Source of the DNA: Atractiella rhizophila
Taxonomy: Eukaryota
Reading direction: 5' to 3'
DNA length: 39,602 nucleotides
Assembly (NCBI GenBank): GCA_021432655.1
Contig: MU271211.1
Span: 78,858-118,459 of the forward strand
The translations under genes and the position numbers were made by a program. The stretch's first letter is position 1; each line of letters opens with the position of its first letter. A model generated the notes under the pieces. That model saw nothing but the letters and a program-made list of their open reading frames with translations. It ran no database searches and was not told the DNA's origin. Positions 1 through 34,808 of this stretch are shown piece by piece.

Positions 1-628
1 ATCGGGACGGGAATAACTTTGGAAGCCACTGTACATCAGTTAGGCTGACTTCACTTCGTTCATGATCAATCGAGCTTACCTTCGATACAGTGCGCATAAA
101 GACTACTCGTTAGCTCTGTCTCAAATAACCGTTTCTGCGCCATTGGTTCAACCTGAAGCTGAAGAATGAGCGGGCTCTCTAATTCAAGCTGGCCTCCGAA
201 GACAGCTCTAAGATGCATTAATTCGTGACAATTGAGTGAATTTGTTGTGTTTAATAACATGCTGGAAGGGAGAGAAGCGACGACTCACCTCGCCTGGTTG
301 ATCCTCACTCCAGTTCTATTTGTCCTTGTTCCAGCATCCCCATCCCCCTTCTTCCGCTTTCCACCAACTGGTCCTTCTCGAAAAATACAATCCAATCCCT
401 TCTTCGCACAGTTCTCGCATACAAGTTTGCCTTCCTTCCTCTTGAACTCGTCGACGTCGTATTTGCACTTCACACGGCGACTTCGACACCTATCCGCGTC
501 AAGTTCCCATGCAGCTCAGCTCATCGCTTTCCACAGAGGCAAAAGGTAAAGACGTGCCGAAAACATGATTTTGGGTTTCTCGTGTCCTTGGATTGGAATT
601 TAGAGGAAGCTGCAGCTGCAGAGGACAT
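1..628 (-). CDS. Zn(II)2Cys6 (GAL4-type) transcription factor, 5' portion; runs off the left edge
   Basis: ATG at 628. Exon 1 (MSSAAAASSKFQSKDTRNPKSCF) spliced across a GC-AG intron (557-490) gives CFRCRSRRVKC-x15-CENCAKKGLDC, the six-Cys binuclear cluster, followed by basic KRKK. Further GT donors follow (gtgagt near 288, gtaagc near 79). Confidence 0.88.
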
Positions 629-1136
629 TGTAATTGGTATCGCAGAGGTTGGAGGGGGAGATCATGGTCGTTCCTTCATGAGGCGGCGGTTGCTCGCACC
701 AATCACACTTCAAAGTTCGGCCGGCGAGGTCAGCAATTCAAAGCAAAGTGTTCCCTTGATATGTAGTCGGGTATGCTCTAGTATCGTTTTTGTTCGTTGC
801 TACCCGGCAAATTAATGCATCTAGACTATGCATGAGCGGTGAACATTGCAGCTGCAACTATTCCTACATCCTCGAATATATACGGCACCATTTGAAAGTA
901 CATGCGAACTTAACTCATTCTGCTTCTCAAAATGTTGTTAACACACGAACCTATTGAGACGAAAGACAAATCCATGTAGTCTGATATAAGGTGGAAAAAA
1001 TGAGCACGAAGATTCCTTGTTACAATAAGTATTGAAGACACGCATGAAATGACGAAAGATGTTCGGAACTGACGAGCATGGTAGACGACCAGTGTTAGCC
1101 TTTTGACGGTGACATAGATGGATACAAAAAAGGGTT

Positions 1137-4100
1137 TTACTGGGCGAGAAGCAGATTCTCAATCCTACGGTCAACCTAATGTTTCTTTCAGTCACAAACA
1201 ATTCGAATGGGAAGAGAAGCACACGCACGGCAGCGGGAAAACATCTCTTCTTCGCTCTCTCGTAAATCTCCTGAGCGCGAGCTCGCTCCCCAGCACCAAG
1301 TTCAGCACGGACCATAACCTATCGCACAATCAAGAATGAGGAATCAATACGATTGCACGAAGAAATGACATACCTCGTAAGTCGACGCTTCACGATGCAC
1401 CGGAGCTCCTGGACGGACTGGTGGCGAAGATTGATTGGTCCGAGCACCGCGAGTTGACCGATCAACGGGATGGTTGTTTTTCGCTGCGTGACCTGAAGGG
1501 CAAGTGTGAAAATTGGCTATGGGAAGGACCGGGGGACAACAAACCTGAAGGCGGGTCTTGAAGAGACTCGAAAAGTTTCCGGGCGTCGCTCATTTTGTTC
1601 TGCGAGGCATAGAGCTGAAAGAAAGCCTGTGTCAGGATGCAAGTGTACAAGTGGAAGTGAGGACATAACGAACCTTGATAAGCGAATTGGCTACATAAGC
1701 TGTCATATGCGTTTCTTTCTGCATACGCTCAATGTAATGTTCTACTTTATCGAAGAGCTTATTGGCTGAAAGAACATTAAAGAGGGCTTCGTAGACAACT
1801 GCGTCAGGCAGTCGTGACTTTGATCGCTGGGTCGAAGGATGAGAAGGAATAGATTCGAAAGTCTCGATCGCTTTCTTCGGGTCTTTAGGACACAGCCCTC
1901 CATCGTCAAAATTGTCGCCCACATAGCACCATTTGGAGGAAACTTTCGATCGGCACAAGAGAGGTGAAACGTCTCCATCATTTTCTCAGGCATGGGGGGT
2001 TCAATGCATCCGTAAGCCTTCATCAACATGTTGTAGGTATGATCGGTAGGCTGAAGGCCCGCTTGTTGCAGAAGGTCATAATAGCGTAAACAGAGTCCGC
2101 GATTTGGCTTCGTTTCGGCATAATACTGCATGAAAGTGTTGTATGGCGGAACGTTCGCTTTGTAGTTTGGCAACTTGATCATTTCTTCGAAGAGATAGAT
2201 AGCAGTCGATTCGTCTCCCTGTCTCAAACAAGCATGAATCAAGCTCCCGTAAGTCCTCTCATTCGGGTGCACTCCACGATTCTTCATATCCTCGAAATAG
2301 TTCAGCGCCTCCGTCGCCTTCCTAGCATGAGCCAAATGCTTTAGAACGCAATTGTAAAGGAAAGTCGTGGGAGCAACATTTCGAGACATGGCATGTTCGA
2401 AAAGCGTCACGGCGATGGTAGTCTGATCCGTCGTCGGAGTGCTATTAAGGATCAGAGCGGCATAGGCGTCAGCAGTGGCGGCGGATCCCATGTCGTCCAG
2501 TTTCTGCACGTTGTCTCCGGCCTTTGCGATGTGGCCAGAATAAGCCAGAGCAATAATCATGGCGCTTTCGAGCTTGGTGATAATCTCAAAATGCTTTCGC
2601 GGATCTTGAATGGCTTGAAGGGAGGCGAGGACTGGAAGATACAACTCGTTGGCTTTGACGAGATCGCCTTTTCGTCCTAGTTGCTCGATCAAGTGGATGA
2701 GAGTTATCGGATCGACAAATTGCTTCTTAGCGAGTCCTTCGTCCACCATCCTAAAAGCTGAGATGGGATCTTTGTGAAGGGAGCCATTAACTCTTTGAGT
2801 GAGAATCATGTCGAGAGCGAAGCCAGGAACGTGTCGTACAGGAGATTGCCAGGTAGACTGTGGTGCGAATGAATACGGTGCCTCTGACTGATGAAATTCT
2901 GGAGAACCACTCTGCTGTTGATATTCAGGAATGGTTGACTGATGCCCTGGCTGATATTCAGGGAAGGTAGTCGGAGGAGGTGGGAAGTCGGTATTGGTCG
3001 GAACGAAAGCGGAAGCCCATTGGCTTTGTTCCTCCGAAGGAGGGGGTCCACTAGCCGTAGCCCGAACAGTTGCTATCGACTGCTCGACCTCTCTCCCGCC
3101 AACCAGCTGAGCGAGCGCGGGCATCAGCTTCTCGTGCAGAGAAGGCACAACAGAGCTTATTCCGATAATCTCGCGCGGAGAGTGTGCAATGCAGAATGCT
3201 TTGGCCATCGACAGCCAGTACTCCTTGATATCCAAGGTGTCTTCAATAGGATAATGGACACCATGTCGCGCCGCATCGTTCCATGCCTCTGAGACCATCT
3301 GGTAGCGCGGTACCACGTCTAGTCCCCGAACCTTCGAGGCTTCAACAAAGACAAAAGCGTGAAGGATGATGAGCCATTCATTCGTCGAAAGGTTGAGAGC
3401 CGCAACATCCTTGCCTTGGAGAGCTAGAGTGTGCTTGGCGTCGAGGTAGCAATCAACAGCAAGCGCAGCCAGGAGGGGAGTGGGCTGCGCTGGAACCCTC
3501 CAATTGATCTCCAAAGCCTTGAGAACGTGAGGAAGAGGTGGACGTTCTTCTGGGTCGTTAGGATAAGCTCCAGTACCCAGATAGTCCAGACCAACCGCCG
3601 CGGGCACGACAAGAGTTTGAAGGCTCTTCCTCATCTGCATTTCGACGCCGGGTTTCGTCAGTGTCGAAGCTGTCTCCCGAAGGACGTCTAAAGCTTCTTC
3701 CCATCTCCTGTTTGCGGTGAGAAGGTAGAGGAGCTTGAGATTCTGACCCCTTCCGAACGCGAAATCGGTTGGAAGACCATGTACGAGCCCTTTTTGGATA
3801 GCCTCTTGAAACAGTGATCGAATATTGAGCAGACGGTCGAGCATTTCTTGCGTCTCAGGAGATAACTTGGGACGTTTCGAAGCGTCGTCGAAGCAGAATC
3901 GAAGGAGTTCTGTCCAAATCGTAATGCTGAGTCGGTAGTTATCGCGTTCGGAGTTGAGGATCATGTTCTGGACGAGATCAAGGTACGGTATGCGAGACGC
4001 TGCATGACGCCTTCCAATGAAATACCTAGCGAGAATCCTGTAAAATCTGAGTCGAGGGGTAGTGATATCAAGATCCCGCCGCCCTTCACCAGTGGCCTGA

Positions 4101-33156: not shown

Positions 33157-33302
33157 AGAATGTTTAAGAAACAGAAAATGATGTATAATTATCGAAATGC
33201 AAACTAATCCTCGCAATATCCCAGAATCAAAGGAGACAAAGCCCGCACGTCTCAAGAAGTCGTGATGGGATCGATCAAGAGAGGCAGGGGCTATAAAGGC
33301 AC

Positions 33303-34808
33303 CTACTGCTTTCCATTTAGCTTGCTCGCTCATCGCAGATTAATGGAAGTGAACTCGCCAACTCATGCACAGAACGTACTATCCGAACGCCTTCCTCTGG
33401 CGGCGCAAGTCCTAGGTATTCAGCGACGACGAGGCGAGTGATGAGCGCCCAGGCTTTCACCGTCTCGTAGTCGAGAGCAGATGCATCGTCCTTTTTCCCA
33501 ATGGAGCATCAAATGAATGAATGAGAACGAAAAATCAGACGTGCCTCGATTCTGTGCCAGACGCTTGGGAAGGGACTGGCAATTAGATGTAAGATGGGTA
33601 CTCCTGCTTTCAAGAAGGGCAAATGATCATCTGACCCCTCTCTCATGAGCTGATACTCATGGTTGAAGGGTAGATGGAAACATACCTTCAATCCCACTCC
33701 CGAAGAAGGAGTAAGCGTCTTTCGGCTTGAAGAAGCTCCTTCCCATTTCCCCCGACACACCACTGGCCGTCAAATCCAAACCTTTCGTCTTCCAATCCTT
33801 CCCATCTGCTCCTTCGTACAACCATCCTTGCTTTCCTAGCCGGTCTTCAGCATTCACAAATGCGGAGAAGAGCCAATCCGTCCGCTCATAGAAAGAACGA
33901 ATGACAGGGTGTGGTGCGCCAAGCAGGTCGAAGAGGATGAAGGTGGTGATTTGGGAGAGCGGGGTGATCGGTGGGTTTGTGGGCGAGGGACTTCGAATTG
34001 GCTTTGACCAAATTTCTGCAAGATGCCTGTTCATCCAATGGATCATAGTTAGCGAATATCAAGAAGAACAGAGAATGACACGCCTGGATCCATATATAGA
34101 ATCTGTATGTGTCCAATCCTTCAACGCCTCCTCTCCGTCGAAGAAAACGATCCTCAAACTCTCATCCTCCTTCCCGCCATCGACCCACGTTCCTTCCTCC
34201 ATTGCCTCAAACTTCCGTCGTCGCCGTGCTTCCAGCCAATCATTCAATGCCGTGGCGACGTCCACCATCATCGCACACGGCGCCGCGGAGTCTGTAGCTC
34301 CAACAAAGTTGACCGGTGTGAGTTTAGAGTCGATGTGTGCGGATAGTAAAAGGAAGCGTGCGGCCGTCGGGTCGTGAGTGAAGACGAGGTTCTTGAATTT
34401 TTTCTCTCCATACGGAGTGTTGGCTTTGAACTCGTCCACTGTGAGCTCCCAGGAGCCATTTGTCGACAGAGATGCGAATTGCTGCGTCACGACCTTCTGC
34501 GCCTTGGCAAGACCTCCCGACTCGATGGGTCGTGGGATGAGAATCTGGGAGAGGAGGGAAGATGGGTTGCGGAAGTCTAGAATTGAGGGTGTATCTGGAT
34601 ACTGAGCTGTTGTGGTTTTTGGAGAGGTTGACAGCGAGTTCAGAAGGGTGAGCGTGTCGCTTGAGAGTGTCGTGTAACCTCGCGCAGAGTGGTGACTGGA
34701 GGAAGCGGCGGAAAAGAAAGGTGAGAGAAGGATGAGCAAACGCAGTGAGCCTCGCAGGCGTGGCAGCTTATTCCTGTCTAAAGAAGTATGAAATGTAGAA
34801 ATACCCAT
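33303..34808 (-). CDS. QPCT: Glutaminyl-peptide cyclotransferase (glutaminyl cyclase, M28 peptidase fold)
   Basis: N-terminal hydrophobic segment; [62 protein letters not shown]. The exact last splice or stop is uncertain (33303 or 33317). Confidence 0.92.

Follow-up and report, generated by a model that had tools for sequence, protein, structure and literature searches.

Does a cluster of introns that begin with GC, found in one stretch of a fungal genome, reflect a property of the whole genome, and has donor recognition changed in the lineage that carries it? This question is raised by a 39,602-nucleotide (nt) stretch of Atractiella rhizophila (contig MU271211.1, positions 78,858 to 118,459), hereafter the window, in which all positions are counted from the first letter. 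A. rhizophila is a cultured, root-dwelling fungus placed in the Atractiellomycetes (Basidiomycota, Pucciniomycotina); its assembly comprises 51.5 Mb in 1998 contigs, and its introns are short, with a median length of 54 nt. The window's MTHFR and the METTL16 of the genome each match a protein recorded for A. rhizophila at 100%. A preliminary description listed four required and two possible GC donors among roughly 50 introns of the window, a share of 8-12% compared with a usual 1%, and proposed relaxed recognition of the 5' splice site through a change in U1, U6 or a protein factor. The present analysis found that GC-AG introns, a known class, are indeed moderately in excess throughout the genome, with an unusual profile at donor position +4.

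The GC donors of the window are real. RNA contigs from 4 of 12 listed runs, belonging to four studies (one recorded as RNA, three presumed to be RNA), were compared with positions 19700-39600 of the window; stretches without coverage count for nothing. Every equivalent cut of each joint was tried, and a final AG was required. Among the joints listed (15 of 25 rows), 14 distinct junctions were defined, and for three of them, at 23108-23157, 33544-33491 and 34083-34027, GC..AG is the sole reading with a final AG. Ten of the remaining junctions are GT..AG, and the last, a joint of 1 kb, can be read as GT..AG only on condition that a single base reflects a difference between strains. The contigs, derived from other strains that are mostly 95-99+% alike, fix the junction, not the donor letters of those strains. 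The skips of 50-57 nt at the three RNA-joined GC sites are as predicted for splicing and give the spliced GC..AG ends expected of U2-type introns. GC thus accounts for 3 of the 13 short RNA-defined introns, which has a probability of 0.0003 at a 1% rate and of 0.019 at 4.5%.

All six introns named in the preliminary description begin with GC and end with AG, span 50-68 nt and carry the donor hexamers given there; three of its four required donors (23108, 33544 and 34083) are confirmed by RNA joints, and the fourth (557) is backed by homology. In all, support is good for five of the six sites, and the sixth is plausible. Their hosts are a Zn2Cys6 factor, MTHFR, glutaminyl cyclase and a gene that belongs to no Pfam family and has two paralogues nearby. 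In the latter, the intron at 23108..23157 on the plus strand (G|GCAAGT) is joined in runs X1 and X2. Both paralogues use GT at this position, as had been described: the plus-strand intron at 21177..21234 has GTATGT and is joined in runs X1, X3 and X5, and that at 24712..24766, also on the plus strand, has GTACCT and is predicted by a hidden Markov model (HMM) and tblastn. The three paralogues lie in tandem at 20400-25200, and introns of two of them are joined by RNA contigs.

The glutaminyl cyclase gene (Peptidase M28), on the minus strand, contains the introns at 34027..34083 (G|GCGTGT; runs X1, X3 and X5) and 33491..33544 (G|GCACGT; runs X2 and X3, and family homology). Also on the minus strand, the intron at 490..557 (G|GCACGT) interrupts the Zn(2)Cys6 cluster outside the RNA-covered stretch; the coding sequence has a Zn_clus match, and the six-Cys motif is rebuilt by GC donors only (557, 527 and 619 to the acceptor at 490), best by 557 and by no GT option.

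As for the two donors that had been called possible, that of MTHFR is now supported, whereas HMM scoring did not decide on the other, for which the support is indirect. The MTHFR intron at 32358..32410 on the plus strand (T|GCACGT) ranks first among 50 open-frame candidates on the homologue HMM, by 3.5-4 bits. Its codon offset equals that of an intron in 10 Microbotryomycetes-like loci, of which nine have GT and one GC, four being near-identical; the GC donor, in locus L040 (191-249), is GCGCGT, with C at +4. A loose end of run X1 at 32411 reads adapter followed by CT, which fits the GC form of the intron over two letters only. The GT donor of the deposited MTHFR model (32354-32403), which leaves one extra residue, was outscored by the GC form on the same HMM. 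This model, spanning 30745-33153, also has a doubtful acceptor at 31195 (rather than 31201) and a doubtful 109-nt intron at 31924. The second site, a possible minus-strand intron at 33306..33358 (G|GCGAGT), lies just before the glutaminyl cyclase stop and outside the RNA joints, and here the gene HMM preferred a GT alternative. Its removal gives a C-terminal ...HEL, and 3 of the 8 listed homologues have EL followed by VS, as from a read-through GT donor; one ends in RRDEL.

How far does this extend beyond the window? A self-trained gene HMM, with GT, GC, GA and GG donors allowed, was applied to loci of the A. rhizophila genome and to controls. The control set was drawn from 80 metagenome loci, of which 56 remained after removal of near-duplicates; 24 (311 kb) are basidiomycete-like and 7 (73 kb) Microbotryomycetes-like, and short, ascomycete-like or smut-like loci were left out. 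In 31 loci outside the window, the soft counts were 14.8 GC among 221 introns (6.7%), with 1.0 for GA and 0.4 for GG, compared with 16.3 of 605 (2.7%) for GC in the basidiomycete-like controls (p=0.011). When it was started from three different priors, the HMM converged on 5.6-6.8% GC in 20 random 10-kb loci, where 8 of 177 high-confidence calls were GC. In the window itself, 35 introns reached a posterior of at least 0.8, four of them with GC. A GC-to-GT floor test, which gave 0.0 GC, is partly circular and carries little weight.

A pattern test over the whole genome agrees. Strong donors followed by a branch point and YAG at intron distance were counted and compared with those in which these signals lie 150 nt further (control distance). 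The pattern G|GTRHGTY was found 2781 times near and 718 times at the control distance, and G|GCRHGTY 708 and 400 times (p=2e-20); a U2-type branch point and AG thus stand at intron distance behind GC donors. Genome-wide, G|GA and G|GG donors had no near excess (913 vs 1157, a background ratio of 0.79). Counts for G|GCRHGTR (438 vs 322) and G|GCAYGTY (295 vs 94) have a reversed-pattern control only. For GCACGT the reversed pattern proved a poor control (451 vs 527, uninformative), and distance-shifted controls were used instead. Within the RHGTY class, GC makes up 13-15% of real donors, compared with 3 of 56 in controls (P=0.037). This class alone sets a floor for the GC-AG share of 3.3% or 2.2%, by the GT-class fraction used, and the addition of the +7 purine class raises it to 4.7% (3.1-6.7) or 3.1% (2.1-4.4); if the class holds about half of all GC donors (4 of 8), the share would be 6.5% or 4.3%, with wide intervals.

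From these counts the genome-wide GC-AG share is estimated at about 4-5% (range 2-7%), compared with about 2.5% in other basidiomycete-like loci by the same method. The excess is not only a local fluctuation around 1-2%, as it extends over the genome, but it is smaller than that of the window, whose 8-12% overstates the genome rate. At a rate of 4.5%, at least 4 GC donors among 50 have a probability of 0.19 and at least 6 of 0.024, so that the count of a window chosen for the trait is unremarkable.

The GC donors are of the U2 type in that the rest of the donor is nearer to the consensus than in GT donors: they hold 5.71 bits of information (n=12) vs 2.89 for GT donors (n=249), and on average 4.67 vs 3.53 of 7 positions match U1. 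A stronger surrounding consensus is reported to compensate GC donors (PMC1557818). The U12-type donor GCATCC occurs in none of the 12 high-confidence GC donors; U11 and U12 were not searched for. The GT donors had been described as lax too, and slightly so they are, with 2.89 bits vs 3.28 in the basidiomycete-like controls and G at -1 in a fraction of 0.57 vs 0.70, while T at +6 is more frequent (0.72 vs 0.56). One of them, GTGGGG, opens an MTHFR intron at 31153..31201 on the plus strand, the removal of which restores ALRGDPPRG.

The distinctive trait is the frequent C or T at +4 of strong GC donors. Only 1 of 12 high-confidence GC donors has A at this position, compared with 12 of 14 in the controls (p=0.0002; these include orthologous repeats). 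High-confidence GC donors with C or T at +4 occur in 7 of 226 introns, compared with 2 of 566 in controls (p=0.003). Genome-wide, strong GC donors with A at +4 were counted 303 times near and 186 times at the control distance, and those with C or T, by subtraction, 405 and 214 times; the pyrimidine class thus makes up about 60% of the excess, which is less extreme than among the HMM calls and agrees in direction. The +4A class appears to stand at about the control level, and the surplus would then be the +4-pyrimidine class. The GT donors are control-like at +4 (A in 69 and T in 59 of 249, vs 159 and 128 of 551); a hand tally of the first 100 strong GT matches, paralogue repeats included, gave T in 46 and A in 25.

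On balance we judge it probable that these are ordinary GC-AG introns of the major spliceosome (U2-type), which arose from old GT introns when T at +2 was replaced by C, and which amount to about 4-5% (plausibly 3-7%) of introns, or about 1.5-2.5 times the share in other basidiomycetes. Switching between GT and GC at one intron position is seen in two cases, the 23108 intron and its paralogues and the MTHFR intron at 32358 compared with those of relatives; in a non-systematic look with regard to a transposon-derived, Introner-like origin, two GC introns of the window stand at old positions with GT counterparts. Since they carry the corresponding motifs, these introns would depend on U1, U2 and U6. 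In this model, old GT introns would drift to GC, and C at +2 would be tolerated in very short, intron-defined units when G at -1, A at +3, G at +5 and T at +6 give enough pairing with U1, U5 and U6. If A at +4 is not additionally needed here, unlike in the control fungi, many more GT donors could drift to GC and stay. The compensating contact may be made at the U6 ACAGA step rather than with U1, because of the +5G/+6T and +4-pyrimidine pattern. The cause would probably be a subtle difference in a protein or a modification, with the small nuclear RNAs (snRNAs) unchanged.

Several points weigh against this explanation. High-confidence GC donors outside the window number 8 of 226 (3.5%, confidence interval 1.7-6.6) vs 14 of 566 in controls (p=0.47). 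Under a fixed equal prior the random loci gave 6.8 GC, 3.2 GA and 1.8 GG of 140, an excess of ~3%, and at a posterior above 0.9 only 3 of 103 were GC. The random sample covers 200 kb, as 20 random 10-kb stretches of the 20 largest contigs, and the first HMM, which recovered 5 of 13 RNA junctions, serves for ratios only. The control loci are all neighbours of a single gene, contain orthologous introns repeatedly and are grouped roughly by best match; the pattern counts are inflated by repeat families, and their conversion from class share to genome rate needs a GT-class fraction that is unstable between HMM runs (26/123 vs 30/218, the latter from the more sensitive run). The U6 contact is one that we infer.

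It is possible, though doubtful, that the trait is common to Pucciniomycotina and not special to the lineage of Atractiella. The +4C donor of the Microbotryomycetes-like locus at the MTHFR intron position points this way, and in the Microbotryomycetes-like loci GC accounts for 3 of 100 calls and C stands at +4 in 56 of 92 GT donors. However, in this 73-kb sample the GA and GG noise equals the GC signal, and two of the three GC donors have A at +4.

A second alternative holds that the genome has the ordinary basidiomycete rate of 2-3%, that the window is an upper-tail cluster among about 1,300 windows, and that the 1% baseline is biased by annotation. For basidiomycetes the 1% assumed in the preliminary description does need correction to about 2-2.7%. 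Fungi average 98.7% GT-AG (Frey and Pucker 2020, PMC7072748); in File S9 of that study, which covers 130 fungi without A. rhizophila, percentages were computed for 13 rows, selected visually because they were the highest or belonged to relatives, and the highest basidiomycetes among these reach 2.0-2.65% (Botryobasidium 2.65%, Cryptococcus neoformans 2.2%). That the deposited MTHFR model missed a GC donor argues that annotation-based surveys undercount. The high-confidence comparison with controls (p=0.47) also suits an ordinary rate, and the floors extend down to 1.5-2.1% at their lower bounds. On the other hand, the in-class GC share of 13-15% vs 3 of 56, the soft counts of 6.7 vs 2.7% and the much greater rarity of the +4C/T class in controls argue against it, and we regard it as unlikely.

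A third explanation would be the loss or weakening of N6-methyladenosine (m6A) in U6 through a broken METTL16: unmethylated U6 prefers U at +4 over A, and GC donors would be freed from the need for +4A, so that a GCAYGT donor class, with a +4 pyrimidine, would arise and double the GC-AG share. METTL16 and SNRNP27K are linked to +4A (PMC10581693, PMC11732430), and METTL16 loss in yeasts is associated with +4U (PMC10581693), with which the hand tally above (T in 46 of 100 GT matches) would agree. METTL16 is single-copy in A. rhizophila (G000:C253, with the T-run at about position 48020); its NPPF motif is intact, and right after it a one-base frameshift in a T-run (locus L113, about 1783-1787) puts the next conserved segment in another frame. 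The N-terminal MHxRN segment was not found in the 500 nt upstream, although only 45 of 135 homologues carry this motif. Apart from the frameshift the gene, its C-terminal domain included, is intact, and at 56 conserved columns there are 5 non-gap mismatches, compared with 0-17, mostly 1-7, in 135 diverse homologues. An earlier impression of strong divergence (37 of 106 columns, against 44 homologues, Agaricomycetes where named) was dropped after that comparison. In the deposited model the frameshift is skipped by a false intron and the exon of the C-terminal domain is missed. The frame of a PPR gene on the minus strand of the window, at about 1882, likewise changes within an A-run by a one-base loss, which suggests one-base homopolymer errors in the assembly. 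Because the rest of METTL16 is conserved and this like loss exists, the frameshift is probably an assembly error. Moreover, the GT donors keep a control-like +4, and C, which does not pair with A, is as common as T at +4 of the GC donors. True loss of U6 m6A is thus quite improbable; if true, it would be a natural link from U6 methylation to tolerance of C at +2 and would bear on why some lineages are rich in GC-AG introns.

An altered sequence of the U1 5' end or the U6 ACAGA box, as proposed in the preliminary description, is extremely improbable, as all five U1 matches found begin with ATACTTACCT and all four full U6 matches carry TACAGAGAA, both counts being lower bounds. Loop 1 of U5 reads GCCTTTTAC, in agreement with its canonical form, so that all three elements are canonical in the copies found. 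U1 and U6 are multicopy and nearly identical, some copies lying within repeated flanks. The consensus U1 5' end quoted in PMC3033335 is identical to ATACTTACCT over ten bases. Among the proteins, U1-C, Prp8, SNRNP27K (with RQYMNR intact) and Luc7 are present in the genome, and Prp8 is nearly identical to the human protein over a single aligned stretch, human 1628-1872. SNRNP27K has two identical-scoring matches (G000:C162 and C693), from duplication or assembly redundancy.

Elsewhere in the window, a tandem duplication with a period of 2263 nt at 14228-18687 contains two 624-codon frames of no Pfam family, with 3 differences between them in 1875 bases. A joint of ~1 kb in one run (26496-27523), upstream of a P-type ATPase frame, is a long intron or an exon skip among introns of 54 nt. 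An Rfam scan of the window gave no match.

The +2/+4 rule becomes open to test in a cultured fungus of moderate G+C that has canonical snRNAs and a class of GC donors without +4A. Gene models of A. rhizophila miss GC donors, as the one deposited for MTHFR does, and if the true rate were 2-3%, the relevance of the finding would be limited to annotation. A literature search, with most subscription journals outside its reach, gave no GC-AG share for this species and no paper that connects GC donors with +4 pyrimidines or with METTL16.

Among known systems, the U2-type GC-AG introns of Sheth et al. 2006 (PMC1557818) are alike in their stronger consensus, normal branch point and AG, and orthologous switching between GT and GC, but they make up 0.4-0.9% in five model species, compared with about 4-5% here, and have A at +4 where C or T prevails here. 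The shift from +4A to +4U in Saccharomycotina (PMC10581693) involves the same position and U6 ACAGA contact; in A. rhizophila, in contrast, SNRNP27K is present, and the effect concerns the GC donors, without a clear +4 shift among the GT donors. For GC-AG introns, PMC3033335 gives a mean of 1.3% over 61 species and describes their variation among lineages with identical U1 ends as an "enigma"; the GC-AG-rich algae reported there (Aureococcus 39.6%, Micromonas pusilla 22.2%, Chlorella 7.7%) share with A. rhizophila a raised GC-AG share and a canonical U1 5' end, which is noted for the two most extreme algae and leads the authors to turn to modifications or proteins. Their GC-AG shares are far higher, however, and their G+C is 65-70%; with a window G+C of about 44-54% and an estimate of about 4-5%, A. 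rhizophila falls outside this high-G+C type (G+C above about 64%, GC-AG above about 8%). The upper tail of the fungi is closer, with GC-AG plus AT-AC at 5.0% in Pochonia chlamydosporia, 5.6% in Metschnikowia and 6.2% in Sugiyamaella, the last with few introns (PMC7072748, File S9), although the basidiomycetes picked from the same table reach only 2.0-2.65%. A. rhizophila thus stands near the top of the fungal GC-AG range, a position that is not unprecedented.

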